A DNA stretch of 64,000 nucleotides from Botryllus schlosseri (GCA_051294905.1 CM119373.1:2978001-3042000), one strand, 5' to 3'. Counted from the first letter of the stretch, positions 10,938-33,619 are shown. Made by a program: numbers and translations. Notes: a model not told the origin generated them from the sequence alone.

Positions 10938-11174
10938 TGTGACAGCCCACCCATTATGGGTGTATGTGATGATTGTTAGTTACTATTGTGATGGTACTGT
11001 TATTTCTAGGGCCGCCAAGTGTCTAGCTCCGACTCCGTTAAATGGACACTTGGTGGACCTATAACAATGCATGCCCTTCTTGTCGGAACTTGCTGCCGTG
11101 AGGACGCGGAAATAAAGCTGTCTGAAAACCATTGTGAATCTCTTTACATCGACTATATTAGGAGGTCTTCCACA
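10938..11174 (+). repeat. 5' LTR
   Basis: TGTGACAG...TTCCACA; no differences from 16600-16836 seen by eye; AATAAA at 11111. Confidence 0.95.
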
Positions 11175-12659
11175 ATGGCGAGCACGCCGAAAAACAAAGT
11201 CGATACTATATCCTCGTCAAAGGAGAGTTATCTGGAGGCACGCAACAGATTTCTAGTGCTTGACACGATTTCGGATTCGGATGATGACTCTGCTGATACC
11301 AGTACCGGTGTGGATGGAAAAGTCAAAGAAAGCTTGGCGAGATTGGAGAAAATTATGGAAGGTATTCCGCGGAATATGGCATACGAAGCGAAGCGTCAGG
11401 CTGCGGAATTGATGAATTCGGTCAATGGGGATGTAGCTGCTCTCCACTCACAAGTTCGGGCATTTGAAGAAAAGTTGCAGCTGATGAACAGCGGATTTGA
11501 AGAAAAGTTCCAGTTGATGAGCAGTGGCATGGGTGACATAAAAGGTATGTTGGCTTCTGTGGTGAACTCGCCTACGGTTGATGCCGACAGCAATGGGGAA
11601 TTAGGTTGTGATCCTGTAAGTAGGCCCAAGGTTGGATTTGCGATAGATTCTTGTGGAGATGAGACAGCATTTGTCCCTCCTTGTAATGGTGCTCAAAGTA
11701 GTCCTAAAATGATGAATGTGGGTCCTTTCCATTATGGTGCGTCTGATTATGTTAAAATGGCCCCCGACACATTTGATGGTGCTAGTGGTACTTCTCTGGA
11801 GGAATACCTCGGTCATTTTGAATTTACTGCTTTGTGTAATGAGTGGAACAATGAACGTAAAGGTTGCTATTTGGGTGCTAGTTTGCGTGGCCGAGCTTTG
11901 TCTGTTGCGTGCGAGTTATCAGCTGAGGTTCGTGTGCAGTATGTGCGCCTCGTTGAACATCTGAGAAAAAGGTGTAAAACTAGTTCTCATGGCTCACTGG
12001 TTTATCGTAATTCCTTCACCACTAGAAAGAACTTGCCAGGGGAGTCACCCACAGCTTTTGCTGCAGCCCTGCGAAGTCTAGCCCATAAGGCATATCCTCA
12101 AATGTCCGACCAAGTTTGCGAGCAGATGGTAATACAGCAGTTTTGCCATGGTTTCTCAGACCCCCATGTGTGTGCTTTACTTAGCTTGCAAGATTCGAGC
12201 AATTTGGATGACCTGATTAAGGTCGCAGAGGTTTACGAAGGCGCTTTTTCGAGTAAAGTAGACCAAGGCAAGGTGGCCAAGTCTTTGATTAAAACTGGTG
12301 ATGGTTATGACTCTGATGGAAATTGTACGTCTAGTAGTGGAGTGTGTTCTGGTGTTTCTGATCTTCGCAAAGACTTGGAAACTTTGTCTTTGGAGGTTAG
12401 GAAACTGGTGAAATCGATGGAATCTGCCCCAGTTAGGTATTCAAAACCAGAACGTCGTGTAATGCCGAAATGTTACCGGTGCGGTGATCCGTCCCATTTG
12501 ATACGTAATTGCCCGGTTCCTGTTTGCGCGAGGTGCCGTGGAGCGGGTCACGTGGCCGAGCAATGTCAATTCCAGTATCCTGCTCCGAACCAGATGTACG
12601 GCCCTGTGTTTAATCAAAATGTGCCTGCTCAACCGACCCATCAAGCTTTAAACCATTAG
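11175..12659 (+). CDS. gag: Gag polyprotein with two CCHC zinc knuckles
   Basis: First ATG after the LTR; capsid-like region (PDTFDG...EEYLGHFE...NEW); knuckles CYRCGDPSHLIRNC and CARCRGAGHVAEQC. Confidence 0.92.
   Translation: MASTPKNKVDTISSSKESYLEARNRFLVLDTISDSDDDSADTSTGVDGKVKESLARLEKIMEGIPRNMAYEAKRQAAELMNSVNGDVAALHSQVRAFEEKLQLMNSGFEEKFQLMSSGMGDIKGMLASVVNSPTVDADSNGELGCDPVSRPKVGFAIDSCGDETAFVPPCNGAQSSPKMMNVGPFHYGASDYVKMAPDTFDGASGTSLEEYLGHFEFTALCNEWNNERKGCYLGASLRGRALSVACELSAEVRVQYVRLVEHLRKRCKTSSHGSLVYRNSFTTRKNLPGESPTAFAAALRSLAHKAYPQMSDQVCEQMVIQQFCHGFSDPHVCALLSLQDSSNLDDLIKVAEVYEGAFSSKVDQGKVAKSLIKTGDGYDSDGNCTSSSGVCSGVSDLRKDLETLSLEVRKLVKSMESAPVRYSKPERRVMPKCYRCGDPSHLIRNCPVPVCARCRGAGHVAEQCQFQYPAPNQMYGPVFNQNVPAQPTHQALNH
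11176..11188 (+). promoter_or_regulatory. Primer-binding site (tRNA identity not determined; resembles tRNA-Arg-type PBS)
   Basis: TGGCGAGCACGCC one base after the LTR CA end; TGG is complementary to tRNA CCA. Confidence 0.75.
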
Positions 12660-12687
12660 TAGCGGATCATTGGTCCAGTGATACCGC
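12647..12687 (+). promoter_or_regulatory. Programmed -1 ribosomal frameshift signal
   Basis: T TTA AAC slippery heptamer in gag frame two codons before the stop; the -1 frame is open into pol; downstream hairpin GCGG-ATCATTG-gtc-CAGTGAT-a-CCGC. Confidence 0.8.
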
Positions 12688-15600
12688 GGATAACACCAGT
12701 GCTATGGACAAATCTTTGGATAGGGTGTTAGAACATGATTCTTTGGTTTTTTCGTTAGCTTTATCAACTAATTGGTTTGCGATTGTGAGTGTGAATGGTT
12801 TTTCGATCAAGTTTCTTATTGACACGGGCATTGCGATTACAGTTATCGATATTTCTGTGTGGGAGGATATGCCTAACAAAGGTGAGCTGTTTCCGTATGA
12901 GAAGTCGTATAAAGTTGCCAATGGTGGATGGCTGAACGTGTTAGGTGGGAGTAAAGTGGAAATATGCATTGAGTCTGTGTGTGTTGTCAAGGAAGTGGTT
13001 GTTGCGGAGCTCGGCGCCGCTGTTGGGATTTTGGGTTATGATTATTTTAAAGAGTATGATTGTGTGTTGTATGCAAAAGACGAATGCATGGAAGTGTTGG
13101 GCCAAAGGGTCAATCTTAAACCGTCCGCTCCATCAGTGCCCTGCTGTAGAATCTTTTTGGATAGTGATGTAGCTATATCTGGGTACAGTGAGACGATAAT
13201 ATTTGGTAAACTTAATGAGACTTGGCCCCAGTTGGATGGAATTGCGGTTATTTTCGAACCTTCAGGCAATTTCGTGAGTGAATATGAGTCGAGCGGTCTG
13301 TATTTGGTCCCTGGATTGGTAGACCCAGAATTGGATAGGATACCCTTGCTGTTGGTTAATTCTGGCGGTGAGGACATTATTTTGCCAGCTGCCTTGTTAC
13401 TGGGAGTTTTGTGTCCGCAAGAGTGTCAGCCTGTGGAATTTTGCTGTCCCACGCTTGTTCAGGATGTCCCTCATTATTCTGGATCTCTACCTGAGCATCT
13501 GGAGTGTCTGGTAGACGGTGTGGAAGGTCTCTCTGATTTCCATCAAGAATCATTGCGGAACCTCCTGATTGAATTTCAGGATGTTTTCTGTGGCCCAGAT
13601 GGTCGCTTGGGTCGTACTTCTGTGATCAAGCACAAAATTGTGACTTCCTCGTCTAAACCAATCAAAGTGCCTCCGCGACGGTTGGGCTGGGCCAAGCGAA
13701 AGATATTGGACGCGGAGATTGATAAGATGCTGGATCAGGATGTTATTGAGCAATCGGACTCCCCATACAATACACCGTTGTTGTTGGTACCTAAGAAAGA
13801 TGGGTCATCTCGTGTTGTTTTGGATTTTCGAAAACTGAACGAAGTTACAGTGAAAGACGCCTATAGCCTGCCAAGGATTGATGACATTTTGGACTCGCTC
13901 GGTAATTCCACTTGGTTTTCTGTTTTCGATTTAGCCAGTGGTTTCTGGCAGGTGGAGATTGATGAGAAGGATCGCCACAAAACTGCTTTCAGCCTTCCTG
14001 GGAGAGACCATTACCAGTTCAAGGTTATGGCTTTTGGATTGGCCAACTCGCCACCTTTGTTTCAAAGATTGATGGAAAAAGTTCTTGCTGGGATTTTATA
14101 CAAGAAAGCTCTGGTATTCATTGATGATGTCATGGTATATGCCGGGAGTTTCGAAGAGGAAATTGCAAATTTGAGGGATGTTTTCCTCAGGATTCGTTCT
14201 GCAGGACTGAAATTTAAACCGTCCAAGTGCAAATTGTTCAGAAAGTCGGTGGAGTATTTGGGCCATGTTATCACGTCGAACGGTGTTTTGTGCTGTGAAG
14301 AGAAAGTGAATGCGATCAAGGAGTGGCCAGTGCCTTGTAAATTGAAGGATTTGCAGGCATTTTTGGGCACGGCAAATTATTACCGACAGTTTGTGCCGTT
14401 TTTTGCATCGGTGGCCAAACCGTTGCTGCGGCTCACTAAGAAAGGTGTCAACTTCAAATGGGATGAACAGTGTCAGATGGCATTTGATCAATTGAAAACA
14501 AAACTGACCTCAGCTCCTATATTGGCGTTTCCTTTGGAGGATGGTGGTGCTTTTATATTGGATTCTGATTGTTCGGGTTTTGGTGCAGGAGCAGTGTTGT
14601 CACAGCTTCAAGATGGCAAAGAAAAGGTGATTGCATATGCAAGTAAATCTCTTTCAAAGGAACAGTCCAACTGGTGCGCTACTTTCCGAGAGCTGTATGC
14701 TTGTAGATGGGCAGTTGAACATTTCAAGACTTATCTCTGGGGTCGAAAATTCATTCTGCGGGTTGATCATGCTGCGCTTAAATGGCTGATGAATTTTCGC
14801 GAACCAGAAGGCCTGGTAGCACGTTGGATATCTTACTTGAATACGTATGATTTCACGGTCGAGCATAGGCCTGGGAAGCTTCATGGCAATGCGGATGGCT
14901 TGAGTCGCAGACCTCGGCGACGTTGCAATCGTGTAGAGTGTGGCTCATGTGCCCCATTTTTGCCTTCCGAAGGTGGGAAAATTGTATCTGCAATTGTTGC
15001 TGGTATTTCTGACGATAGGACTACTAATTGGTTGGGATCTTATACGTTATCTGACATCCGTCAAGCGCAAGCAGAAGACGCGGAACTTAATGTGGTCATA
15101 CAGTATAAAGAGAATCGTACGGACCGTCCCACATCTGAAGAATTGTTGTTTCAGCCGCATGTAGTGCGTCAGCTGTGTATGCAGTGGTCTGTGTTGTCGC
15201 TGTGTAATGGAGTGCTGTATAGAAAGTATTCGAAGGCAAAGCCTGGATGTCCCGTAACGTATCAACTGGTAGTGCCAAGATCATGGCGCAGGGAACTTTT
15301 CAATCACCTTCATACTCTTCGTACTGCCGGTCACCTTGGACGTGACAAGACTTACTGGAAGATGAGAGAACGCTACTACTGGCCCGGTATGAAACGCATG
15401 GTGGAGCACTGGGTAAAATTTTGCAAGACTTGTACGGCTACAAAGTCACCTCATGGTATTCACCAAGCTGCTTTGTGCAAGATGCTTTGTGCTGAACCTT
15501 TAGATAGAGTGTCGCTTGATTTTGTTGGGCCATTGCCTGAGACTGACGAGGGGTATTTGCACATGTTGGTACTTACTGATTACTTTTCGAAATGGGTTGA

Positions 15601-16507
15601 AGTGTATCCGATGCGTGTTAAATCTGCTCAAAATACTGCAGAAATTCTGGTGTCCCAATTTTTCACAAAATATGGGTGCCCACGAATAATTCATACTGAC
15701 CAAGGGGGACAATTCGAAGGGGAACTTTTTCAGCACATGTGTTTGCTCTTTGATATTAGGAAGACTCGTACCACCCCCTATCATCCCCGTTCGGATGGAC
15801 TCTGTGAGCGTATGAACAGAACGCTGCAGCAAATGCTCACTAGTTTTGTTGATGATTCTCGGTCTGATTGGGCTGACCATTTGCCCTATATTTTGATGGC
15901 TTATCGCTCAACAGTTCATCATTCGACTGGTTATACCCCAAATCGCCTGTTTCTGGGTCGTGAAATATCACTTCCTACTGATATCATGTATGGTCGGCCC
16001 CCCAGTAATGACAGTGCTAAATGCTATGTGGATTATGTCAATTGGTTTCGTGATGCTTGTTCAGATGCTTTTACTTTTGCTCGGGAACGTCTATCCAAGT
16101 CTGCAGTGAGGCAGAAACGTGATTTTGATAGTGCGGTGAGACCGCTGGCTTTTGCCGTGGGTGACTATTGTTGGTATTTCTATCCTCCTAGAAAGAGAAA
16201 ATTGTCCTCTGGATGGTCAGGACCCTATGTAATTGTTGAGCAAATTTCAGAGTGTGTTTACCGCATACAGAAAGTTGGAACTCAAAATTTTCGCAAGTCT
16301 CATGTTGATTACCTGATGCCTTATGATCGTGACGATGGGGAAAGTAGTGATGTTGGTGTTTTTGAACCAGTGATTGCTGATGTTTCTGATCATGGTGATG
16401 AGATTTTTGATATTGTGAATGACCAGGACGTTCCTGAAACTGCATACACTACAAGGTCGAAACGTTTTGTTAGGCGTCCCAGGTATTTGTTGGATTATGA
16501 GTCATGA
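12647..16507 (+). CDS. pol: Pol polyprotein (aspartic protease, reverse transcriptase, RNase H, integrase); first ATG at 12704, probably made as a Gag-Pol fusion
   Basis: FLIDTG protease motif; RT motifs DLASGFWQ and FIDD; RNase H LDSD...RELYA; integrase HHCC (H..AGHLG...CKTC), D-D-E (LDFVG, HTDQG, CERMN) and GPY motif; 1267-aa uninterrupted ORF. Confidence 0.97.
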   Translation, partial: FKPLVADHWSSDTADNTSAMDKSLDRVLEHDSLVFSLALSTNWFAIVSVNGFSIKFLIDTGIAITVIDISVWEDMPNKGELFPYEKSYKVANGGWLNVLGGSKVEICIESVCVVKEVVVAELGAAVGILGYDYFKEYDCVLYAKDECMEVLGQRVNLKPSAPSVPCCRIFLDSDVAISGYSETIIFGKLNETWPQLDGIAVIFEPSGNFVSEYESSGLYLVPGLVDPELDRIPLLLVNSGGEDIILPAALLLGVLCPQECQPVEFCCPTLVQDVPHYSGSLPEHLECLVDGVEGLSDFHQESLRNLLIEFQDVFCGPDGRLGRTSVIKHKIVTSSSKPIKVPPRRLGWAKRKILDAEIDKMLDQDVIEQSDSPYNTPLLLVPKKDGSSRVVLDFRKLNEVTVKDAYSLPRIDDILDSLGNSTWFSVFDLASGFWQVEIDEKDRHKTAFSLPGRDHYQFKVMAFGLANSPPLFQRLMEKVLAGILYKKALVFIDDVMVYAGSFEEEIANLRDVFLRIRSAGLKFKPSKCKLFRKSVEYLGHVITSNGVLCCEEKVNAIKEWPVPCKLKDLQAFLGTANYYRQFVPFFASVAKPLLRLTKKGVNFKWDEQCQMAFDQLKTKLTSAPILAFPLEDGGAFILDSDCSGFGAGAVLSQLQDGKEKVIAYASKSLSKEQSNWCATFRELYACRWAVEHFKTYLWGRKFILRVDHAALKWLMNFREPEGLVARWISYLNTYDFTVEHRPGKLHGNADGLSRRPRRRCNRVECGSCAPFLPSEGGKIVSAIVAGISDDRTTNWLGSYTLSDIRQAQAEDAELNVVIQYKENRTDRPTSEELLFQPHVVRQLCMQWSVLSLCNGVLYRKYSKAKPGCPVTYQLVVPRSWRRELFNHLHTLRTAGHLGRDKTYWKMRERYYWPGMKRMVEHWVKFCKTCTATKSPHGIHQAALCKMLCAEPLDRVSLDFVGPLPETDEGYLHMLVLTDYFSKWVEVYPMRVKSAQNTAEILVSQFFTKYGCPRIIHTDQGGQFEGELFQHMCLLFDIRKTRTTPYHPRSDGLCERMNRTLQQMLTSFVDDSRSDWADHLPYILMAYRSTVHHSTGYTPNRLFLGREISLPTDIMYGRPPSNDSAKCYVDYVNWFRDACSDAFTFARERLSKSAVRQKRDFDSAVRPLAFAVGDYCWYFYPPRKRKLSSGWSGPYVIVEQISECVYRIQKVGTQNFRKSHVDYLMPYDRDDGESSDVGVFEPVIADVSDHGDEIFDIVNDQDVPETAYTTRSKRFVRRPRYLLDYES

Positions 16508-18552: not shown

Positions 18553-20152
18553 ATTTTGACTGCATCGCGAAAATGCATATTGCGATTTTCTTCCTATATG
18601 CAACTGAATTATAATTTGCAAGTAATTTCTAATTTCATCAATATCAGGGGTGGCCAACTTTTTCGGCCAAAGGGACACGTGAGATTTAAAAACCATTGCG
18701 CGGGTAACTGGAATGTTGATAACCTTTTTTTAGTCGTCCTATAAGAGCAAACCGAATTGGGTAACGTTGCAAACAATACTTATATTACTACGCTCTAAAA
18801 TTGATAACAATGAGGTCATGCAACTGTGCAGTGTGCAAATATGCCCTGGTCGCGCCAAGCGCGAAATTTTTTCAAAGGTAATGACTGAATTCTATCAATA
18901 AATATGTTACTAGCAAATATTGGAGGTCACATCTGTATACCACTGGGCTCATCTGGCAAGGATAGGTTCATTCGACGTTTAGAAATAGCAATATCGACGG
19001 TTTCGGTGAACATGCCTCTATCATTTTGTGCAAATATTTCTCCCAATTGCGAAAATAGTGAGACTCAATTCTATAAATAACGTGTAGGCCTATTTATAGT
19101 TTTCAAAAGGGGCGCCAATACCGAATGTAAGAAATCTAGTGACAATAAATCATGCGAAATGCTGATATTAATTTCAAGTCGATATATCTGCTATGAAATA
19201 TTCTACTTTATGGTCATATACGAAGATCTGCGATAAATGTGGCTGGCCCGCGGATACGCCAATGCGTCAGAACTGATGTTTTAGTCATCATCAAATTTCG
19301 CGGTCAGGCTAATCAAATTTTGGTTAGCCTTGCAATTTTACCTGATGTTATAGATAATTTCGAGAATTACCTCGCATGCCACACAAAAGCTTCTCATGGT
19401 CTTCAATTTGGCCTGCGTGCCACGGGAGTAGTATAGTCGATCGCTCTGGGGGTGGCAGGGGTTCTTATGGCGGGGTGGCGATTCGCCTGGAAACCCGGGG
19501 TGGCGAATCGCCTCTTATCTCTTATGGCGGGGCCGCGATTCGCCATGTGTTCTTATGGGTGCGGTCGTGATTCGCCTTTTCGGGTAAAGGCCGCGGTCGT
19601 GATTCGTCGTGAAAACTCGTGGTCGTGACTCGCCTTTTTTGCTATAGGCGGTGGCGGCGATTCGCCCGTCGCACTTTCAGACATCTCTCGCGTGGTGTTG
19701 AATATGTACGAGTCACCAACAATAACCGCGCGGACGGAAACGTGGCTTGTTGTGAGGATTAAGCAGTGCGACCTATATTTCGAATGACCTGCGCGCTGAA
19801 TTGTTTCCGTGCAGTTGTGTGCTACTATCGATTATTACACTAGACCGGTCAGTGTGAAATAGTTTGATCGTAAATTATGATATATGATGTCGTAGTTTAG
19901 TCGTGTCAAATGACCGATCGTGTTCTCTTTTCTCGCTATTGATTGCTACCTGAATAATACTTTCGGCTTATTCACACCGCTGTTTCGCGCCTACAGAATA
20001 GTCTGCTGTTCACAGTCACAACTTCATCGCGATAGCACAATTTTCACACCTCGATCAGTAGAACAACACCGCACTAACCCAGTTGTCGAATCACATAGGT
20101 CATACATTTTACGCGAAATGAAATATTGTATTGTGGTATACAAATAGGCAAA

Positions 20153-20788
20153 CTATTCTTTCAATTCGACAAGTCTAGTTGACGAATCGATTTTCAAGCT
20201 ACCGACACAGTTTTTAACACGAGTGAGTTGATATTTCTTCCCGGGTACGAGCGAGGCTTTGTTCCATTGATCCAAAACCACCTCACCAGTATCATCCTTC
20301 AATGTAAAACTGTGTAATTTCAACTCCTTTCCGGCACCAGAATTGACCATCTTCTCCTCTCGAGAAACACAAGTAGCGGCGATCGAGACGTATTCATCTT
20401 TATTTCCGTATACCGATTCACAGGTCAATAATGGGTATTCTTCAGTCGTATGTCTCGATTTTCCATGTATGGTTACTGACGAAGCCCGTCCCAGTAATAC
20501 AGCAGGTTTTCCAGTAAATTTGTCAATTTGGATCCAACCGGATTTGACCATGAGTTTTTTTCGTCTGGAGAATGCTTTCTCAACGACCCCGAACAATTCA
20601 CGATTGAAACACGTGAAAGATATCTCTTCGTTATTACCGTCGATGAATATACCTTTGATATATTGACTAACGCTACCTCTTTTGGGTGATGAGACGAATT
20701 TGACGCCGACGTGAAAATTTGAAGCGGCTCCGACTTGCATACTGCTGACGCTGTTCGATGTCATATCGTTTGGTAAAGTGAGAGTCAT
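20153..20788 (-). CDS. Tandem OB-fold ssDNA-binding protein, RPA-like (left-arm copy)
   Basis: 211-aa ATG-started ORF with two OB-like repeats: FHVGVKFV...KGIFIDGNNEEISFTCFN and YVSIAATCV...FTLKDDTGEVVLDQWN...LVPGKKYQL. Confidence 0.75.
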   Translation of the reverse strand: MTLTLPNDMTSNSVSSMQVGAASNFHVGVKFVSSPKRGSVSQYIKGIFIDGNNEEISFTCFNRELFGVVEKAFSRRKKLMVKSGWIQIDKFTGKPAVLLGRASSVTIHGKSRHTTEEYPLLTCESVYGNKDEYVSIAATCVSREEKMVNSGAGKELKLHSFTLKDDTGEVVLDQWNKASLVPGKKYQLTRVKNCVGSLKIDSSTRLVELKE

Positions 20789-21243
20789 CAACAAGGTTTG
20801 AAACCTTACAACTCGATCAGTGATTTTTTATTCAACTGTGAAATAAGTTAATATTCTGTAAGACACAACAATTATTGCTCGGGTAATGTGACATTGAGAT
20901 TAACAAATTGTATATTGAGTATACGAGATTTGAATGTTTGACTAGTGATAGACTGAAAAATATCTCGCAAGAGAATCCATGTGTTATAATGCAGGCTATC
21001 GTTATACAAACAAATTCAATACGGAATACCTATTAACCAATTGGTCCACAACCCGAGATTCGAGTGTTCGATCAGTGCGCCATAAAAATTATTTTCATGC
21101 ATACCAACTCTTGCGCTGTGGTGAAGGGTGTTATGATATGAGTAAAGTTTTAATAAACACCAATATCAGCACCCTGATTGAGAAAAAACTTGATTCGTAT
21201 GTATGAAAAGTGTTTGATTGGGAATTTATCTATTTCTCACAAT

Positions 21244-21360
21244 CCCGCCACTGTTTTGAGGACTGGTGTTATATGATTATTAAATAATATTTCACAAACT
21301 CAAGCCGCTGTTTTGAGGACTGGTGTTATCTGATTATTAAATAATATTTCACAAACTCAA
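21244..21360 (+). repeat. Two-copy ~57-bp direct repeat inside the arm (mirrored at about 30549-30665)
   Basis: CTGTTTTGAGGACTGGTGTTAT.TGATTATTAAATAATATTTCACAAACTCAA occurs twice. Confidence 0.8.
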
Positions 21361-23869
21361 CCCTAATCGTAAGACTTGAGAGAAATCACGTATTCGCTTG
21401 ATGATAACACGCATGCGACAAAAAACATCACCGCGATTTTGTAAACTGATCATACTAATCAGGGTATTTACCATCACGCCTCTAGAATAGGATTGACTAC
21501 TAAAGGTAAATTAAGATAATCCAAAATGAAATATCTCAACTTTGACTTTGACTCTGAATTGAAATAGATTGACAAGCATAACTACCAACTTTCACCCACT
21601 CACATTTCGAAATTATACGCACATTGATTTGAAACAAGTAATGTAACATTACAACTCTACTCCCGATCCAGCTTTCCGTATGTCAAAGAGACATTTCAAC
21701 ATCTTACCATACTCAAAAGAATTATTCATAACATTAACAAGTGTTTAAAACCTAGTTTTCACTTACTTGACTATATCACTACAACTCGCAAACTTGAATT
21801 AATTCATCCTGGTGGTATTCGTATGACCGATAATTTTTATCCAACTGTAAAAGTCGTTACTAATCTATAACACAAAGTAATCACTACTCGGTGCATACGA
21901 CGAGATTTGAATACTCGGTCTATGATAGCAATTCGCACAAGTGAATCCAAGACATCGGGCTGTGAGAAATCTTCACGATGTTGTTATTGCCACATTGACC
22001 TACTGCCTTATCCAACGTACTCAAAGTAAAGTAGACACGATTTCAGTCATATACACAATCATTACAACTGTAAACTATACTAATCAATCTCGGTCGTATT
22101 CACATATCACAGACCTGTTTTTTTTTTATTCCTTCAGTAAAATGTAGTCGTATTAACCTGATGATAACGTGCACACACAAGAAACATCACCGCGATTTTA
22201 TAATTGATCACCCGACTTAGAGTACCAAAAAAAATTACCGGGATTTTTATAAACTAGCCATATTACTCAATACATCTATCAATATCAGAACGCAAGGTCC
22301 AATACCAAAAGAAAAGTACTTTTTTAGTTTAATAAAAATCAAATCATTCGTCTTCATCTTGTGAATTGTCACACACCCAACTAATATCATACCAAATAGT
22401 TATTTACAATAACCAAGACACAGGAAATTTGTTTTGGACGTTTCGATTTTTTTACTAGAGGTACTCATCACTTCGCTTAATACGATCTTGATTTAAACAC
22501 CATCGAACCTTTGGTGTCTATCGTTTTGCTGGATACGAATTATGTTAGTCTAACAATAAACAATTTTCACTATCTTGGGTTATGAACTCAGTGTGTTAGC
22601 GGTCATTCAATATTTTGTAGTGTCAACTAGTTACTTTGTAGGATACGAATGATCATCCCCACAACTCTTACAAAAGTACGAAAGATATTTACATCACACA
22701 AAGTAATCAACTTTACTTGATATTCTCACATTACGAAACTAAAGAATGGTCAGTTTGACTCTACAAACTGTTTCGTTACCTCAAGAACTTTATTGTCTGA
22801 ATGGTTGTTCATGTGTCTCAAGAACCAAATAGTTCAACACAGAACTAGTACTAACAGAAACATCAGAGTTGTTTACACAAAAGTTTGTATGTGTGCAGTA
22901 TGCGAATACCACGTGTAAGTCCAGCACAATTGCAGTATCCATCCGAGTTTAGTTAACACAAATTTATTACAACGGAGCCACGTAAACTTTCGTGAAAGAA
23001 AAGCATACTCACTTCTCGAGATTCTGTCAATGTCATAGCAATAAACCAGCTACTCCAACAACAGAGTACATACGTTTTCTAGTAACGACTCTCGAATCTT
23101 ACACACAGATCAATCTACTTTGCTAACGAAAAGCGCTGAGTCATCACATGATTATCCTCACAACAACCAGTACATGGAGCTGTATTAAAATGTTCCTATC
23201 CCTCTGCACACCAGTGACGAATTGTTTTGTGAATCGAGTTGTTGTTCCGCGTCAAGTCTCCATGTTGAAGCGTACAATAAACAGCGCAATCCAATTAAAA
23301 CCATGAATCTATTTTCATTTCCTCACAAACTGTCACATACAGAAAAATAAATTTAATTCCACCAAAAACATACTTGTAACCAATCGCTTTCATTAAACAC
23401 ACAACACCATAAAAGTATTTACTTTCTACAACATATACATTCCGATGTAGTCAAGAAATATTTTTATTAATCAAAATCATCGACTTCTGTTTACGGTGTT
23501 GGTGTGTGCATTTCATACATGTGGGGCCCGTATTAAAATGGACACGACACGACTGAATGTAAGGAGATAGAAGTCTATCGCATAGATTTACATGTGGTCT
23601 TCGCTACGGTTTCAAAAACGAATCATCTCTTTTGCATTGATCGAGACCGAACAAGTTAGTTACATGTATTCGCGGTCATGATTGTGTTTGTCATACGCGA
23701 ATGATAGGGTTACTGTCAAATCTACATACAACAACCTTCTGACACTCATAATAGTGTTTCCATTCTCTCCCTTCTTAATTGTAGATTCACGAAAAGTATA
23801 TTGTACAACTGGACAACTACGTTTAACAAGACCAACGACACTGAACACACACCTCTTACCCTAGTAACA

Positions 23870-24735
23870 ATATCATTTTCACTTGGTGATCTATCCTTTC
23901 CTAGAGTAACAAACCCTTGTCGTTTACAAATCTATTTTTTCCTACAGCAAAAAACTATTTTCACTTGGAAAAATACTTTTACCTAGAGTAACTAATCATT
24001 TTCTTTTGGAAATATATTTTCTCCCTGGGTAACAAACCCTTTTCGTTTGAAAAAATATCATTTACCTGAGTACCAATACCGTTTTCACTCGGAAATCTAT
24101 TTTTTCCCTGGGTAACAAACCTTTTTCACTTGGAAATATATTTTTTCCCTGGGTAACAAACCTTTTTCACTTGGAAATATATTTTTTCCCTGAGCAACAA
24201 ACCTTTTTCACTTGGAAATATATTTTTCCCCTCGGCAACAAACCATTTTCACTGAGCAACAAACCATTTTCACTTGGCGGGTCGTCGTTTACCTAACTAA
24301 AATACCATTGTCCTTTGGAGATTTATCGTTTACCCAGTGTAACAAACCCCTTTTCACTCGGAAATCTATTTTTGCCCTGGATAACAAACCCCTTTTCACT
24401 TGGAAATCTATTTTTTCCCAGAGTAAGAAACCTTTTTCACTTGGAATTCTATTTTTACCCTGGATAACACACCTTTTTCACTTGGAAATATACTTTTTCT
24501 CTGGGTAACAAACCTTTTTCACTTGGAAATATATTTTTTCCCTGAGCAACAAACCATTTCACTCGGCGGGTCGTCGTTTACCTGAGTAAAAATATCATTT
24601 TCCTTTGGAGATCTGGCGTTTACCCATTGTAACAATACATTTCACTTGGAAATCTGTCGTTTACCTGAGTACCAATACCGTTTTCACTTGGAAATCTATC
24701 TCTTCCCTGGGTAACAATACCATTTTCGTTTTGAA
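23870..24735 (+). repeat. ~41-bp minisatellite in the left arm
   Basis: Unit CTTTTTCACTTGGAAATATATTTTTTCCCTGGGTAACAAAC, e.g. starts at 24121 and 24162. Confidence 0.9.
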
Positions 24736-26112
24736 AACTGACAACCACACCGGTCAATTTGATATTTTTTGTATATTGTTACAACAGCCAGCGACAAAAT
24801 ATACACCAACAACGACTCCGATACATTTGTCTAATCAAATATTCACTTGCTCTGATGCATCCCATCAAAATCATTGGTTACTCACATACAATAACAATGT
24901 GCTGTTGTACATCGACATGTATGTTTTCGGAATTGGTGAATAAAGGGGTTTCCGATATGTCCGTGATGTCCGGGTTCGTGCTTTGGATTTTCCAGAGTCA
25001 AAATGTCTGAATAAAACACCTCCTCGACTTTGGTAACTGGTTGATACACGGATAATGGTGTTCGGAAAACGGATGAATTTATGTTCCCCATCGCGCTGAC
25101 AACATCGGGTTACTTGTGAGTTTCCTCGGGTCTGTTTACTATATTGTGTCTTTACTGGTCAATACATGTCGCTCCAGTCAGCTGAAACCGGATCACTAAT
25201 ATGAGAAAGTGTGGGGCCGGATCCGGATATTCACTCATGACCCAACGACCGATATTCAAGTAAACATGTTACAGACCGTGTTTTGTCTCCATGAAAAATA
25301 CCTATGCATACACCATCACATCAAGTACGTCACGATTGTTCACAAGTATTTGCGTAAACGAGGTGTATATACAATGTGTCGATGCACAAACATCATGGGA
25401 CACAAATTCACGTTCTCAAGTCTCATCATGCGACGACTCTGTACATTCAATGTGGGCATAGATGACTTGGGGACAGGCAAGCAGCCATATTTGGACGTAA
25501 CATGGTCTTAGTATGAACCAACCTCCACCCAACTTGTGAAATATCAATCTCACACAAGTATAACCCTTTCACGGGTTCACACCTTGATTTTGCAAGATTG
25601 TTCGGATTCTCAGGTAGACTTGCATCGTGATCAAGACTCGACATAATCGTGTTGCGTAACTCGCTCAATCCCTGCGCATTGTTGGTCATAACCTGCTAAC
25701 TTTTTCGCCGAGACCGCAGTGTTTCACCCGACATAATGTATTTGGCGATCACCATCGTTATCAATCTTTCACGCGATGAATATGTTAGATGTCGCTACTC
25801 CCACACAACGACTCCAGCTAAACATCGTGAGCAGTGACTCCGCATTGAAATCGTAAACATGGACTCTGTGTGTGTGTGAATCTCGAGTTCGATTACGATT
25901 TGATAATGTAATCCAAGGTGAATCTCTGCGGGTCGAAGACTGATTTCGTGTTAATCACGCCACAAGAGGGTGCTGTCTCGTAATTCTACAGGTCAACATA
26001 AACCGCGGTTGGAAACTTTTGGTCTAGTTGATCCAGCTGCGTATTGAAACGGTGTACCCACGCAGACCACTGAGAAAACGTTGTCGTTACCTGACTATAT
26101 CCACGAGTAATT

Positions 26113-26388
26113 ATGGGACTACGCGTAACGTTCCATAGATTCCTCTGGCCCCACACCGTGGTTTTACGACACAGACAAGATGCAGCGGTGGAAATATTGA
26201 AAATGAAAAACGATACCTTGGTGACATTTGATTTGGATTTTAAACCTGATGAACCATACACTCGATTGGTACATTGGGCTGACAACTCTATCGTCGAGGT
26301 CAAGGGAAAAGAAATCTACAGATTTGTTGGTGTTGTGGATATTCAGCGAAAATCAGGGTATATGGTTGTGTATGGTTCGCATATTTGA
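26113..26388 (+). CDS. Hypothetical 91-aa protein in the unique spacer of the palindrome
   Basis: ATG-started, protein-like composition, beta-rich looking; no family recognised. Confidence 0.3.
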   Translation: MGLRVTFHRFLWPHTVVLRHRQDAAVEILKMKNDTLVTFDLDFKPDEPYTRLVHWADNSIVEVKGKEIYRFVGVVDIQRKSGYMVVYGSHI

Positions 26389-27170
26389 CTGAGAATATAT
26401 CGGTATGCATAATGCACTATCCATTGTATCATGTCGTGTGTCATCTATGCCCACATTGAATGTACAGAGTCGTCGCATGATGAGACTTGAGAACGTGAAT
26501 TTGTGTCCCATGATGTTTGTGCATCGACACATTGTATATACACCTCGTTTACGCAAATACTTGTGAACAATCGTGACGTACTTGATGTGATGGTGTATGC
26601 ATAGGTATTTTTCATGGAGACAAAACACGGTCTGTAACATGTTTACTTGAATATCGGTCGTTGGGTCATGAGTGAATATCCGGATCCGGCCCCACACTTT
26701 CTCATATTAGTGATCCGGTTTCAGCTGACTGGAGCGACATGTATTGACCAGTAAAGACACAATATAGTAAACAGACCCGAGGAAACTCACAAGTAACCCG
26801 ATGTTGTCAGCGCGATGGGGAACATAAATTCATCCGTTTTCCGAACACCATTATCCGTGTATCAACCAGTTACCAAAGTCGAGGAGGTGTTTTATTCAGA
26901 CATTTTGACTCTGGAAAATCCAAAGCACGAACCCGGACATCACGGACATATCGGAAACCCCTTTATTCACCAATTCCGAAAACATACATGTCGATGTACA
27001 ACAGCACATTGTTATTGTATGTGAGTAACCAATGATTTTGATGGGATGCATCAGAGCAAGTGAATATTTGATTAGACAAATGTATCGGAGTCGTTGTTGG
27101 TGTATATTTTGTCGCTGGCTGTTGTAACAATATACAAAAAATATCAAATTGACCGGTGTGGTTGTCAGTT

Positions 27171-28037
27171 TTCAAAACGAAAATGGTATTGTTACCCAGG
27201 GAAGAGATAGATTTCCAAGTGAAAACGGTATTGGTACTCAGGTAAACGACAGATTTCCAAGTGAAATGTATTGTTACAATGGGTAAACGCCAGATCTCCA
27301 AAGGAAAATGATATTTTTACTCAGGTAAACGACGACCCGCCGAGTGAAATGGTTTGTTGCTCAGGGAAAAAATATATTTCCAAGTGAAAAAGGTTTGTTA
27401 CCCAGAGAAAAAGTATATTTCCAAGTGAAAAAGGTGTGTTATCCAGGGTAAAAATAGAATTCCAAGTGAAAAAGGTTTCTTACTCTGGGAAAAAATAGAT
27501 TTCCAAGTGAAAAGGGGTTTGTTATCCAGGGCAAAAATAGATTTCCAAGTGAAAAGGGGTTTGTTACACTGGGTAAACGATAAATCTCCAAAGGACAATG
27601 GTATTTTAGTTAGGTAAACGACGACCCGCCAAGTGAAAATGGTTTGTTGCTCAGTGAAAATGGTTTGTTGCCGAGGGGAAAAATATATTTCCAAGTGAAA
27701 AAGGTTTGTTGCTCAGGGAAAAAATATATTTCCAAGTGAAAAAGGTTTGTTACCCAGGGAAAAAATATATTTCCAAGTGAAAAAGGTTTGTTACCCAGGG
27801 AAAAAATAGATTTCCGAGTGAAAACGGTATTGGTACTCAGGTAAATGATATTTTTTCAAACGAAAAGGGTTTGTTACCCAGGGAGAAAATATATTTCCAA
27901 AAGAAAATGATTAGTTACTCTAGGTAAAAGTATTTTTCCAAGTGAAAATAGTTTTTTGCTGTAGGAAAAAAATAGATTTGTAAACGACAAGGGTTTGTTA
28001 CTCTAGGAAAGGATAGATCACCAAGTGAAAATGATAT
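27171..28037 (-). repeat. ~41-bp minisatellite in the right arm
   Basis: Mirror of 23870-24735. Confidence 0.9.
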
Positions 28038-31000
28038 TGCTACTAGGGTAAGAGGTGTGTGTTCAGTGTCGTTGGTCTTGTTAAACGTAGTTGTCCAGTT
28101 GTACAATATACTTTTCGTGAATCTACAATTAAGAAGGGAGAGAATGGAAACACTATTATGAGTGTCAGAAGGTTGTTGTATGTAGATTTGACAGTAACCC
28201 TATCATTCGCGTATGACAAACACAATCATGACCGCGAATACATGTAACTAACTTGTTCGGTCTCGATCAATGCAAAAGAGATGATTCGTTTTTGAAACCG
28301 TAGCGAAGACCACATGTAAATCTATGCGATAGACTTCTATCTCCTTACATTCAGTCGTGTCGTGTCCATTTTAATACGGGCCCCACATGTATGAAATGCA
28401 CACACCAACACCGTAAACAGAAGTCGATGATTTTGATTAATAAAAATATTTCTTGACTACATCGGAATGTATATGTTGTAGAAAGTAAATACTTTTATGG
28501 TGTTGTGTGTTTAATGAAAGCGATTGGTTACAAGTATGTTTTTGGTGGAATTAAATTTATTTTTCTGTATGTGACAGTTTGTGAGGAAATGAAAATAGAT
28601 TCATGGTTTTAATTGGATTGCGCTGTTTATTGTACGCTTCAACATGGAGACTTGACGCGGAACAACAACTCGATTCACAAAACAATTCGTCACTGGTGTG
28701 CAGAGGGATAGGAACATTTTAATACAGCTCCATGTACTGGTTGTTGTGAGGATAATCATGTGATGACTCAGCGCTTTTCGTTAGCAAAGTAGATTGATCT
28801 GTGTGTAAGATTCGAGAGTCGTTACTAGAAAACGTATGTACTCTGTTGTTGGAGTAGCTGGTTTATTGCTATGACATTGACAGAATCTCGAGAAGTGAGT
28901 ATGCTTTTCTTTCACGAAAGTTTACGTGGCTCCGTTGTAATAAATTTGTGTTAACTAAACTCGGATGGATACTGCAATTGTGCTGGACTTACACGTGGTA
29001 TTCGCATACTGCACACATACAAACTTTTGTGTAAACAACTCTGATGTTTCTGTTAGTACTAGTTCTGTGTTGAACTATTTGGTTCTTGAGACACATGAAC
29101 AACCATTCAGACAATAAAGTTCTTGAGGTAACGAAACAGTTTGTAGAGTCAAACTGACCATTCTTTAGTTTCGTAATGTGAGAATATCAAGTAAAGTTGA
29201 TTACTTTGTGTGATGTAAATATCTTTCGTACTTTTGTAAGAGTTGTGGGGATGATCATTCGTATCCTACAAAGTAACTAGTTGACACTACAAAATATTGA
29301 ATGACCGCTAACACACTGAGTTCATAACCCAAGATAGTGAAAATTGTTTATTGTTAGACTAACATAATTCGTATCCAGCAAAACGATAGACACCAAAGGT
29401 TCGATGGTGTTTAAATCAAGATCGTATTAAGCGAAGTGATGAGTACCTCTAGTAAAAAAATCGAAACGTCCAAAACAAATTTCCTGTGTCTTGGTTATTG
29501 TAAATAACTATTTGGTATGATATTAGTTGGGTGTGTGACAATTCACAAGATGAAGACGAATGATTTGATTTTTATTAAACTAAAAAAGTACTTTTCTTTT
29601 GGTATTGGACCTTGCGTTCTGATATTGATAGATGTATTGAGTAATATGGCTAGTTTATAAAAATCCCGGTAATTTTTTTTGGTACTCTAAGTCGGGTGAT
29701 CAATTATAAAATCGCGGTGATGTTTCTTGTGTGTGCACGTTATCATCAGGTTAATACGACTACATTTTACTGAAGGAATAAAAAAAAAAAACAGGTCTGT
29801 GATATGTGAATACGACCGAGATTGATTAGTATAGTTTACAGTTGTAATGATTGTGTATATGACTGAAATCGTGTCTACTTTACTTTGAGTACGTTGGATA
29901 AGGCAGTAGGTCAATGTGGCAATAACAACATCGTGAAGATTTCTCACAGCCCGATGTCTTGGATTCACTTGTGCGAATTGCTATCATAGACCGAGTATTC
30001 AAATCTCGTCGTATGCACCGAGTAGTGATTACTTTGTGTTATAGATTAGTAACGACTTTTACAGTTGGATAAAAATTATCGGTCATACGAATACCACCAG
30101 GATGAATTAATTCAAGTTTGCGAGTTGTAGTGATATAGTCAAGTAAGTGAAAACTAGGTTTTAAACACTTGTTAATGTTATGAATAATTCTTTTGAGTAT
30201 GGTAAGATGTTGAAATGTCTCTTTGACATACGGAAAGCTGGATCGGGAGTAGAGTTGTAATGTTACATTACTTGTTTCAAATCAATGTGCGTATAATTTC
30301 GAAATGTGAGTGGGTGAAAGTTGGTAGTTATGCTTGTCAATCTATTTCAATTCAGAGTCAAAGTCAAAGTTGAGATATTTCATTTTGGATTATCTTAATT
30401 TACCTTTAGTAGTCAATCCTATTCTAGAGGCGTGATGGTAAATACCCTGATTAGTATGATCAGTTTACAAAATCGCGGTGATGTTTTTTGTCGCATGCGT
30501 GTTATCATCAAGCGAATACGTGATTTCTCTCAAGTCTTACGATTAGGGTTGAGTTTGTGAAATATTATTTAATAATCAGATAACACCAGTCCTCAAAACA
30601 GCGGCTTGAGTTTGTGAAATATTATTTAATAATCATATAACACCAGTCCTCAAAACAGTGGCGGGATTGTGAGAAATAGATAAATTCCCAATCAAACACT
30701 TTTCATACATACGAATCAAGTTTTTTCTCAATCAGGGTGCTGATATTGGTGTTTATTAAAACTTTACTCATATCATAACACCCTTCACCACAGCGCAAGA
30801 GTTGGTATGCATGAAAATAATTTTTATGGCGCACTGATCGAACACTCGAATCTCGGGTTGTGGACCAATTGGTTAATAGGTATTCCGTATTGAATTTGTT
30901 TGTATAACGATAGCCTGCATTATAACACATGGATTCTCTTGCGAGATATTTTTCAGTCTATCACTAGTCAAACATTCAAATCTCGTATACTCAATATACA

Positions 31001-31120
31001 ATTTGTTAATCTCAATGTCACATTACCCGAGCAATAATTGTTGTGTCTTACAGAATATTAACTTATTTCACAGTTGAATAAAAAATCACTGATCGAGTTG
31101 TAAGGTTTCAAACCTTGTTG

Positions 31121-31756
31121 ATGACTCTCACTTTACCAAACGATATGACATCGAACAGCGTCAGCAGTATGCAAGTCGGAGCCGCTTCAAATTTTCACGT
31201 CGGCGTCAAATTCGTCTCATCACCCAAAAGAGGTAGCGTTAGTCAATATATCAAAGGTATATTCATCGACGGTAATAACGAAGAGATATCTTTCACGTGT
31301 TTCAATCGTGAATTGTTCGGGGTCGTTGAGAAAGCATTCTCCAGACGAAAAAAACTCATGGTCAAATCCGGTTGGATCCAAATTGACAAATTTACTGGAA
31401 AACCTGCTGTATTACTGGGACGGGCTTCGTCAGTAACCATACATGGAAAATCGAGACATACGACTGAAGAATACCCATTATTGACCTGTGAATCGGTATA
31501 CGGAAATAAAGATGAATACGTCTCGATCGCCGCTACTTGTGTTTCTCGAGAGGAGAAGATGGTCAATTCTGGTGCCGGAAAGGAGTTGAAATTACACAGT
31601 TTTACATTGAAGGATGATACTGGTGAGGTGGTTTTGGATCAATGGAACAAAGCCTCGCTCGTACCCGGGAAGAAATATCAACTCACTCGTGTTAAAAACT
31701 GTGTCGGTAGCTTGAAAATCGATTCGTCAACTAGACTTGTCGAATTGAAAGAATAG
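31121..31756 (+). CDS. Tandem OB-fold ssDNA-binding protein, RPA-like (right-arm copy)
   Basis: Translation identical to 20153-20788. Confidence 0.75.
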   Translation: MTLTLPNDMTSNSVSSMQVGAASNFHVGVKFVSSPKRGSVSQYIKGIFIDGNNEEISFTCFNRELFGVVEKAFSRRKKLMVKSGWIQIDKFTGKPAVLLGRASSVTIHGKSRHTTEEYPLLTCESVYGNKDEYVSIAATCVSREEKMVNSGAGKELKLHSFTLKDDTGEVVLDQWNKASLVPGKKYQLTRVKNCVGSLKIDSSTRLVELKE

Positions 31757-32581
31757 TTTGCATATTTGTATACCACAATACAATATTTCATTTCGCGTAA
31801 AATGTATGACCTATGTGATTCGACAACTGGGTTAGTGCGGTGTTGTTCTACTGATCGAGGTGTGAAAATTGTGCTATCGCGATGAAGTTGTGACTGTGAA
31901 CAGCAGACTATTCTGTAGGCGCGAAACAGCGGTGTGAATAAGCCGAAAGTATTATTCAGGTAGCAATCAATAGCGAGAAAAGAGAACACGATCGGTCATT
32001 TGACACGACTAAACTACGACATCATATATCATAATTTACGATCAAACTATTTCACACTGACCGGTCTAGTGTAATAATCGATAGTAGCACACAACTGCAC
32101 GGAAACAATTCAGCGCGCAGGTCATTCGAAATATAGGTCGCACTGCTTAATCCTCACAACAAGCCACGTTTCCGTCCGCGCGGTTATTGTTGGTGACTCG
32201 TACATATTCAACACCACGCGAGAGATGTCTGAAAGTGCGACGGGCGAATCGCCGCCACCGCCTATAGCAAAAAAGGCGAGTCACGACCACGAGTTTTCAC
32301 GACGAATCACGACCGCGGCCTTTACCCGAAAAGGCGAATCACGACCGCACCCATAAGAACACATGGCGAATCGCGGCCCCGCCATAAGAGATAAGAGGCG
32401 ATTCGCCACCCCGGGTTTCCAGGCGAATCGCCACCCCGCCATAAGAACCCCTGCCACCCCCAGAGCGATCGACTATACTACTCACGGGTTGGCCACACCT
32501 GATCTCTATGGTTATTATAAAGGTGATTGGTGGTACATAAAAATTCTATTGAAAATCCTTTGAAAGCAATTGTTTTTATGA

Positions 32582-32770
32582 TAGAGAAGTTGGAGTCGAA
32601 GTCTGAGTCGAAGTCAGGGTCATTTTAACAAACTCCGAATCCGACTCCCAGTCGGTATTTTTCCCACGACTCCGACTCGAGCCATTATAGATTTCACGAC
32701 TCCGACTCCGACTCAAACAAGCGAAAATTAGCCAAACTCCGACTCCATCGATTCCGACTCCACAGCCCTT
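32582..32770. mobile_element. Short degenerate hAT-type MITE with GACTCC repeats
   Basis: GGAGTC/GACTCC arrays ending in GACTCCACAGCCCT. Confidence 0.5.
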
Positions 32771-33619
32771 TATGTCGCTATATATATATCCCGTATATAT
32801 GTGATACATAACTGTTACTGACCTGGGAAGTACTTACGCTAATCTTTTAGCCTTCGTGGAACCGTAGATTTTCGCTGATCATTAAAGATAACTCTACCAC
32901 GATAACCATCAAGCACATTATTATAGACGACTGGTGCACGAAATGAACTGTGCATCAACATGTTAAACGGATACAACCATTGAAATAGGATTTTCGCACA
33001 AATCGAAAACACTACGATGAATATTTATTGCTAATCAGTGTGACGTTGTTCCCTTTCAGATTCCAGTTCAGAAATGGGATGCCTCACCTTGGAAAGTGGC
33101 ATCGTATTGTTCGGTTGAAACGCAGCAGTTTGATACCCATTAGTTGCGACATTGCAACTGAACTTCCATATATTGCAGATAAAATTGGCCTTTAAGAATA
33201 AAGGCGTTTCCATTTCGTTTCCAAGATCGGCGTTTTCATTTCCGTTTCGTTTCCGAGATCCCCTACTTTGTCACTGCACATTACGTACAACCAGAACGGT
33301 CACAATTCGAATACTGGTCGAGCCTAATTGCCTACAACCAATGTGAGCCAGGTCTGACGTATCATCAGAAATCATATGTATGAGTTGATTGAGTGTCCTG
33401 GCCTCCAGTGCGCACTTGATACTGACAAAGGAAAGTTCTGGTGTTCCAGGTAACACTGCCTAAGATCCTAAGGGATCAGTGCCAGTTTTCTCGCGATGCG
33501 GTATAGCACGAAAAGATTTGTAGGTGACAATGAACGGAAGACTTGTACAGCTGGACAATAACAGACATACCTATTTGAGGCAAATCGCGTATGAGTACTG
33601 GGTTGTTCTTTGTGGTATC

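Follow-up and report, generated by a model that had tools for sequence, protein, structure and literature searches.

The window analysed here, a stretch of 64,000 nucleotides from Botryllus schlosseri (GCA_051294905.1 CM119373.1:2978001-3042000) whose positions are counted from its first letter, contains at 19427-32482 a 13,056-bp element that has the ends of a Maverick/Polinton and consists almost entirely of one inverted repeat. Its limits were set by its ends, an inverted-repeat scan, and a global alignment of its arms. It begins with AGTAGTATAG at 19427 and closes with CTATACTACT, ending at 32482; the termini read AGTAGT...ACTACT and are flanked by a perfect 6-bp target-site duplication, CACGGG, one copy directly outside the left end (19421-19426) and one directly outside the right end (32483-32488). 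The left arm (19427-25466, plus strand, 6040 bp) is 99.90% complementary to its mirror image, the right arm (26440-32482, minus strand, 6043 bp), and a single-copy centre, or loop, of 973 bp lies between them (25467-26439). The scan returned three abutting blocks that together set 19423-25466 against 26440-32486. In the global alignment, the arms, which make up 92.5% of the element, are not perfectly identical, differing by three substitutions (20147/31762, 23867/28040, and 24359/27547) and in the length of two poly-T tracts (+2 near 22120 and +1 near 23940). A 6-kb repeat at 99.9% identity cannot be due to chance. Ends, duplication, arm lengths, and the length of the spacer had all been reported in a first-pass annotation made from the sequence alone, and they are borne out here.

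The host of the insertion is another dispersed repeat (19200-19426 and 32483-32640), represented by at least 40 copies at 90-92% identity; a first look had given 2472 candidates for it. Three of these at least 40 copies were fetched as paralogous empty sites, and in all three the left and right flanks are contiguous and overlap by exactly one CACGGG. Because the paralogous sites are contiguous with a single CACGGG, the element arrived by insertion with a 6-bp duplication, and an assembly chimera is very unlikely.

Vertebrate Mavericks are marked by (AGT)2...(ACT)2 ends and perfect 6-bp duplications, the signature of the group according to the available text of the vertebrate study (PMC8097293). 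The element has such ends, the 6-bp duplication, and terminal inverted repeats (TIRs). Its terminal motif, AGTAGT-N-GATCGSTC (19427-19446, plus strand; mirror copy 32463-32482), is matched four times in the window against zero expected. Just inside it lie seven subterminal 14-mers of the form GGYNGYGAHTCGYC, spaced by 25-32 bp (19474-19666, plus strand; mirror array 32243-32435), which are presumed to be protein-binding sites of an origin or end complex. A terminal motif, AGTAGTAGTATAGATCGGTC, also occurs on the plus strand at 39632-39651. It is unpaired within the window, and the sequence behind it shows no homology (150 bp or longer) with the studied element; this may be an isolated or truncated end.

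Relatives that carry the missing genes are present in the same genome. The terminal 474 bp of the element has 79 matches in the 495-Mb assembly, typically in facing pairs 13-20 kb apart; 40 of 2248 candidates were scored, and ten facing pairs were fetched as halves. Three of the ten fetched elements have ordinary TIRs of 617, 789, and 801 bp and are 15.4-16.2 kb long. L037/38, one of these three, codes for a 1300-aa protein with a protein-primed-type DNA polymerase B (PolB) domain (DNA_pol_B_2, PF03175, E 3.6e-8), a 359-aa rve integrase (PF00665, E 2.6e-16) with a chromodomain (E 2.2e-9), a 217-aa ATPase-like open reading frame (ORF) with weak AAA and A32-type Pfam matches only, and a 432-aa ORF whose nearest clusters in a language-model Atlas carry a double-jelly-roll domain. 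The last is a candidate double-jelly-roll capsid gene, offered as a lead only; no protease was recognised in this copy.

Each arm of the palindrome opens with a part homologous to the PolB-side end of these autonomous Mavericks, comprising TIR and terminal gene (19427-20794, plus strand; mirror 31115-32482). By blastn, window 19421-20794 is 89.1% identical over 1408 bp to the PolB-side end of L038, and for 19669-20794 the match to the equivalent ends of L043 and L046 is 95-96% (L043: 95.6% over 1126 bp); across the outermost 245 bp of the element, identity to the three available autonomous copies is just 72-81%. Beyond 20794, the arm has no blastn match to any of the three. These alignments show homology between the ends of the palindrome and those of PolB- and integrase-bearing elements of the same genome. 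The affiliation proposed in the first pass from the ends is thus upheld by the published motif and by a first 1.37 kb that is 89-96% identical to such elements.

No match to PolB, rve integrase, capsid, packaging ATPase, or protease genes was found in the element by tblastn of the autonomous ORFs or by blastn, and among the ten ORFs of at least 150 aa in L037/38, just a 218-aa ORF matches the element, once per arm (tblastn). Given that PolB, integrase, and capsid are lacking, the element is a non-autonomous derivative and not an autonomous member. The earlier statement that it holds no core genes therefore stands for PolB, integrase, ATPase, and capsid, and has to be amended for one intact Maverick gene in each arm. 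This gene is also the longest ORF of the element, at 224 aa from stop to stop, which agrees with the previously reported ceiling of 213 aa in order of size, not in the exact value.

The retained gene lies at 20153-20827 on the minus strand (224 aa, stop codon included), where ATG 20764 is the likely start and would give 203 aa; a second, identical copy is found in the right arm at 31082-31756 on the plus strand. It is read as encoding a predicted tandem DNA-binding protein of the oligonucleotide/oligosaccharide-binding (OB) fold. The product is 91% identical to that of the 218-aa ORF adjoining the PolB-side end of L037/38, and identity between palindromic and autonomous copies in general is 91-96%. 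The ratio of nonsynonymous to synonymous divergence (dN/dS) ranges from 0.05 to 0.73 and is mostly 0.2-0.5 across the 21 pairs of seven copies, palindrome-to-palindrome pairs included. Sequence searches returned one near-identical protein among 5.8 billion clusters and three matches among 1.84 billion representatives, of which two are remote relatives that lack Pfam families, and no Pfam family reached threshold for the ORF itself. Its protein-language-model neighbours carry RPA-type OB families. A single-sequence AlphaFold prediction reached a predicted local distance difference test (pLDDT) score of 34. With an alignment-based model, the best Foldseek match is RPA70 DBD-A/B (1jmc_A; E 3.5e-8 over 210 columns, with a TM score of just 0.42); Teb1 AB and HIN-200 domains are also matched, and baculovirus LEF-3 follows further down. 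Superposition of the C-terminal half on an archaeal RPA-type OB domain by VIA-align gave Z 12.2 and a root-mean-square deviation of 2.1 A over 91 residues.

RNA from this family is concentrated on the same gene. In one bulk run, of which about 6% was read, 126 reads fall on 19227-23800, concentrated at 20145-20909, where each orientation class attains a depth of 8-11, while the remaining bins stay at 0-2.7. Another run, labelled 'RNA?' (X15), has reads in every bin and might consist of DNA; it was left out of account. Four reads that extend past 20776 carry extra letters, which we take to be the reverse complement of a template-switch oligo; if this recognition is right, these four reads would tentatively put the 5' end of an RNA 12 nt upstream of ATG 20764, and the N-terminus of the single database relative would agree with this.

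The rest of each arm past about 1.37 kb is, judged by its sequence, non-Maverick DNA. Pfam, Rfam, and tRNA matches are all absent from the remaining 4.7 kb of each arm; none of five arm and centre ORFs has a Pfam family at E up to 0.1, and no Rfam family or tRNA was found within 19000-33000. Three components recur among the palindromes of the genome. A non-coding block at 21498-21897 (plus strand, with a mirror copy in the right arm) is conserved among the subfamilies at 83-87%, and at 68% in one. A second block (22764-23166, plus strand) holds an invariant 19-mer at 22871-22889, mirrored at 29018-29036. About 0.9 kb of tandem-repeat arrays with a 41-bp unit follows at 23856-24727 (plus strand; mirror arrays 27179-28033), and this unit is common to all nine palindromes. 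The centre is likewise a conserved family component: at least 40 full-length copies at 92-99% identity occur elsewhere in the genome (40 of 1072 candidates scored), so that the spacer, earlier called unique, is unique within the element and not in the genome.

The structural classes described below rest on ten full elements, one partial locus, and marker counts. Seven of the ten fetched elements are long palindromes, with arms of 4.0-6.9 kb that are 99.0-99.98% alike. All seven are colinear with the window element, with shared blocks about 68-87% identical and unrelated stretches between them. Both arms hold the small ORF in three of them (L033/34, L041/42, and L047/48), with an interruption in the right arm of L041/42, and three others (L031/32, L035/36, and L049/50) have no ORF of 140 aa or more. 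In the seventh (L039/40, G000:C4:4510500-4530500), both ends come from the opposite Maverick end, on the side of a 188-aa ORF, and the inner blocks are still homologous to those of the studied element; ends and interiors thus appear to have been exchanged between lineages. A sister copy of the studied element sits at another site (L055/56, G000:C12:24606698-24621177) and is 99% identical to it over window 20830-23800. This sister is 14,480 bp long, its centre is just 93% identical, and its outermost ~60 bp are different, which suggests modular exchange even between close copies.

Both ends were in view in seven of the ten elements (four palindromes and three autonomous copies), the fetched sequence having missed ends for three pairs, and in all seven the 6-bp duplications are perfect and all different. 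Counting the sister copy (AACACA) and the window element, this holds for nine of nine, in line with the first-pass suggestion to look genome-wide for further copies with other 6-bp duplications.

Another member of the palindromic family starts within the window itself, at 57587, with AGTAGTTATATAGATCGCTC; it occupies 57587-64000, its right part lying beyond the window. It is colinear with the studied left arm up to 63787 at 74-87% identity, which places it in another subfamily. DNA contigs under another species label contain pieces of the low-copy arm part that are 95-99% alike (for example, 20792-21293 and 21860-22407), and the subfamily is, as far as these pieces tell, common to two species labels, through descent or transfer.

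Family size was assessed by counting exact patterns genome-wide, each against a reversed-pattern control. The terminal motif occurs 1157 times forward and 1154 times reverse (control 2 and 5), which corresponds to about 1150 Maverick-ended elements in the 495-Mb genome; the possibility raised in the first pass, that no other element has these ends, does not apply. The 19-mer arm marker, which is present once per arm in nine of nine palindromes and in none of three autonomous elements, was found 784 times forward and 770 times reverse with up to two mismatches (control 18 and 15). A PolB 20-mer was found 59 times in total (control 0), an integrase 20-mer 64 times, always with two mismatches as the pattern is off at its 3' end (control 1), and an OB-gene 20-mer 266 times (control 3). 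Palindromes thus number in the hundreds, up to about 760, and are about ten times as numerous as the gene-bearing copies (about 60). By arithmetic, ~760 copies of 13-14 kb would occupy ~2% of the genome. On contig C1, 98 arm-marker matches were listed, exact matches first, of which 39 pairs are convergent (32 of them 4.4-6.6 kb apart) and 20 matches, an upper bound, are unpaired. In at least 12 of 36 terminal pairs, the arm markers are equidistant from both ends and sit 3.9-4.5 kb inside the Maverick termini. A variant of the terminal pattern, AGTAGTTTTGGTCGATCGCTC, recurs unpaired on the minus strand (7 of the first 100 matches; for example, G000:C1:162774, 801816, and 1060359) and is probably an unrelated repeat that matches the pattern. 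The earlier proposal of mobilisation in trans and integration as a ready-made palindrome is sustained by the different perfect 6-bp duplications of four palindromes and the sister copy, and by symmetric arm markers in hundreds.

How alike the two arms of an element are was measured on a 619-bp block around the 19-mer in nine elements (18 arms; 144 between-element comparisons). In eight of the nine, the element's own two arms are 99.2-100% alike, between elements the median is 77.4% (range 59-99%), and the nearest relative is the element's own partner arm for 17 of the 18 arms. The palindrome lineages have thus diverged by 10-25%, and the arms inside each lineage have not diverged from one another. 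The centres fall into two classes. One, of about 900-973 bp, comprises the window element, L051 (88% identical to the window), and L031/32, L035/36, and L039, which have blocks of 225-262 bp at 74-79%; the other, of 332 bp, is found in L033/34, L047/48, L041, and L050 at 91-99%. Since centres are conserved within and partly between subfamilies, the palindromic form appears to be inherited together with its centre rather than re-made at random points. We infer from these comparisons that the arms may be homogenised during propagation, or that one arm may be regenerated from the other.

The lengths of the family members cluster. Among 36 terminal-motif pairs in the first 21 Mb of contig C1, 21 span 12.5-15.6 kb and two are under 10 kb, and the largest spans (23.7-41.8 kb) are mostly those with nested or asymmetric inserts. 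At G000:C1:16768420-16810257, three nested elements have spans of 41.8, 28.7, and 14.7 kb; once the inserts are subtracted, the units come out at 13.1, 14.0, and 14.7 kb, and their arm markers are symmetric. Lengths of 13.0-14.6 kb in the available palindromes compare with 15.4-16.2 kb in the autonomous copies. The interior has been replaced, yet the elements have not shrunk, which suggests a lower size limit; packaging in a helper capsid would supply one, and the lengths may be taken as a hint of such a packaging limit.

Very probably, the element is a helper-dependent palindromic derivative of a Maverick, which keeps the ends needed in cis and is copied and inserted in trans by the PolB and integrase of coding-complete Mavericks. 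The parts kept in cis at each end would be the AGTAGT terminus, the seven 14-mers, and ~1.4 kb of the PolB-side end. The helper's protein-primed PolB would copy the palindrome from its two identical ends, and the helper's rve integrase would insert it, making the 6-bp duplication; the retained OB-fold protein may serve as a DNA-binding accessory of strand-displacement replication. In protein-primed replicons, panhandles formed by the TIRs serve as origins, as described in the available text (PMC4046053), and a displaced or excised single strand of the element would snap into a hairpin whose ~6-kb stem amounts to an extreme panhandle. Heteroduplex correction across this stem, or re-synthesis of one arm from the other, would keep the arms alike. 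The length cluster of ~13-15 kb equals ~80-95% of the 15.4-16.2-kb helpers and would follow if the DNA must fit the helper capsid, in which case only near-genome-length molecules would spread. As for how the palindrome arose, an origin by snap-back or template switching is plausible, and the existence of palindromes built on either Maverick end suggests that they originated more than once or that ends were exchanged between lineages. The fuller proposal is tentative: the palindromes may be the integrated form of encapsidated, defective-interfering-like Maverick genomes, in which a hairpin in each cycle corrects or regenerates an arm and DNA of ~80-95% of helper length is packaged.

Several observations weigh against this account or parts of it. 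For the studied copy, with its three substitutions, youth alone is enough to explain why the arms are alike. In L049/50, the arms are 70% alike in the 619-bp block, with ~1 kb of different sequence in one arm, indicating that strict symmetry is not obligatory. The length clustering, taken from 36 pairs on one contig, could partly reflect common descent, and both homogenisation and a packaging limit are drawn from comparisons of copies that are all integrated. The OB-fold model, built from a seven-row alignment, is of middling confidence (mean pLDDT 67.6; 72-91 in the C-terminal domain). The gene occurs twice in ~100 of ~760 palindromes, by arithmetic from the PolB and OB-gene marker counts, and is hence dispensable in cis. 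At diagnostic positions, the RNA letters are those of other family members (17 of 17 reads at 20314, 15 of 15 at 20468, and 15 of 15 at 20470), so that transcription applies at the level of the family and not to this copy. Finally, the first-pass annotation had called for an autonomous element with the same terminal ~250 bp; PolB- and integrase-bearing relatives were found, but none of the 40 scored candidates is an autonomous element more than 81% identical to the outermost 245 bp.

The alternative that survives best accepts a non-autonomous Maverick mobilised in trans and dispenses with any special replication mode or capsid limit: the insertions would be young, their arms kept alike by ordinary intrachromosomal conversion, and their length inherited from a ~13-kb common ancestor. 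It is somewhat doubtful but deserves to be taken seriously. The three substitutions of the studied copy fit it; arms of other copies that are down to 99.0% alike are as expected of drift after insertion; the colinear architecture of all palindromes means that length could be inherited, and one element tolerates a 1-kb asymmetry. Set against these points, the subfamilies are ~23% apart (median) in the very block where arms are 99-100% alike, and many indels and unrelated segments separate them, yet they measure 13-14.7 kb, also when nested inserts are subtracted. Moreover, only two of the 36 terminal pairs fall below 10 kb, which is not what DNA transposon families usually show when nothing prevents them from shrinking.

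It is unlikely, though worth stating, that the palindromes persist partly because they benefit the host, as sources of long hairpin RNA from which small RNAs would be made that silence Maverick ends and the OB-fold gene. Transcription running through a 6-kb palindrome would yield RNA that folds back into a double strand, 1.4 kb per arm is the same in kind as helper sequence, and RNA reads over the OB gene fall in both mate-orientation classes. The library may, however, simply be unstranded, and with a depth of 0-2.7 per bin outside 20145-20909 in the one bulk run, arm transcription was not seen.

Still less probable is an independent foldback transposon in the inner 6.8 kb (about 22559-29350), which would have inserted in a Maverick, nucleated the palindrome once, and moved by itself. 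Foldback elements typically have long inverted repeats rich in tandem repeats; here the inner arm part and the centre greatly outnumber window 20830-22559, and copies of the inner part often occur in inverted orientation at distances of 3-7 kb. The single inner-only locus that was fetched, L051, is a palindrome of 6.8 kb whose 2916-bp arms are 99.1% identical, and has neither defined ends, Maverick or other, nor a duplication. Both the outer 430 bp and the left flank of L051 show homology to arms of Maverick-ended palindromes, which makes it a truncated family member. In addition, the 19-mer and the 41-bp unit occur in nine of nine Maverick-ended or derived palindromes, and at least 12 of the 36 terminal pairs have their arm markers at symmetric positions, 3.9-4.5 kb inward of the Maverick termini. 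A separate foldback module was rejected on L051, which, being a single locus, weakens the idea rather than disposing of it. Lastly, although long perfect palindromes are a known class of artefact, a chimera of assembly or amplification, or an inverted duplication that formed locally in the chromosome once a normal insertion had taken place, is hardly credible given matching 6-bp duplications on two different flanks that are contiguous in three of three paralogous sites, the same architecture with symmetric markers hundreds of times over, five other palindromes with distinct duplications of their own, and arm pieces 95-99% alike under a second species label.

The palindrome can be placed among known systems by what it shares with each of them. 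With autonomous Mavericks/Polintons, it has in common the end motif, 6-bp duplications, TIRs, and homologous ends in the same genome; it differs in lacking PolB, integrase, ATPase, and capsid, in being 92.5% repeat, and in its 6-kb arms, as against TIRs of 46-1,447 bp in vertebrate Mavericks 12.7-24.6 kb long (available text of PMC8097293) and of 584 bp in an anole Polinton (available text of PMC3014272). Butterfly polintons come closer in one respect, since the accessible text on them describes ~2-kb TIRs holding hexon and adenain, hence two gene copies per insertion, with a normal core between, as well as polB-less polinton-related variants with long interspersed nuclear element (LINE) cargo and polymorphic insertions (10.1101/2025.02.07.637071). 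Here, in contrast, the repeat is nearly the whole element, the sole retained gene is the OB-fold gene, and copies number in the hundreds; the terms 'palindrom' and 'hairpin' are absent from that accessible text. No description of palindromic or hairpin-like Mavericks was found in the literature searched, which was without subscription journals and Repbase and does not establish that none is in print.

MITE-like non-autonomous DNA transposons (miniature inverted-repeat transposable elements) resemble the element in having kept the ends, lost the enzymes, and outnumbered the autonomous partner, whereas here there is no shrinkage, the interior has been exchanged for other DNA instead of being lost, and the element as a whole is palindromic. 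Foldback transposons (Drosophila FB, Galileo, and Tetris) share long inverted repeats with tandem repeats, a short centre, a mostly non-coding make-up, and high copy number, but the present element has Maverick termini with the first 1.4 kb, a 6-bp duplication, and a PolB/integrase partner instead of a cut-and-paste transposase.

The closest analogy is with defective or satellite genomes of protein-primed viruses, and the element may work like one. Defective adenovirus genomes in which one end is duplicated in inverted form are known, as is repair of the inverted terminal repeats through a panhandle. Like the element, such genomes involve protein-primed strand displacement and have both ends derived from the same genome end; in the studied copy, both arms begin with the PolB-side end and its terminal gene, so that both termini come from the same helper end, as in snap-back defective genomes. 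The proposed cycle would also share with them the need for a helper, near-helper size, and terminal repeats kept identical via the panhandle. The differences are that the copies described here are integrated in chromosomes and that most of the arm is foreign to the helper. A literature search on adenovirus defective genomes gave nothing on point.

Upstream of the element, the window also contains ORFs of 549 and 1297 aa on the plus strand (11010-16507), in a region of higher G+C and positive GC skew. The 1297-aa ORF has RVT_1, RNase H, Integrase_H2C2, and rve domains, which identify it as the pol of a Gypsy-type long terminal repeat retrotransposon.

Non-autonomous derivatives of Mavericks have rarely been described, and ~760 palindromes beside ~60 gene-bearing copies amount to a natural experiment on which cis sequences suffice, on a hairpin or panhandle step, and on a packaging size limit. 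Mavericks/Polintons are considered to be viruses that replicate by protein priming. Their virions and replication intermediates have not been seen so far, according to the available text (PMC8097293). If the palindromes are indeed integrated defective genomes, a hairpin cycle would account for identical arms despite lineages more than 20% diverged, and some lineages would keep two expressed copies of a replication DNA-binding protein, favouring their own copying. They would then rank as the first satellite or defective genomes found in nature for a Maverick, and would offer a direct readout of Maverick replication and DNA packaging, processes never observed.

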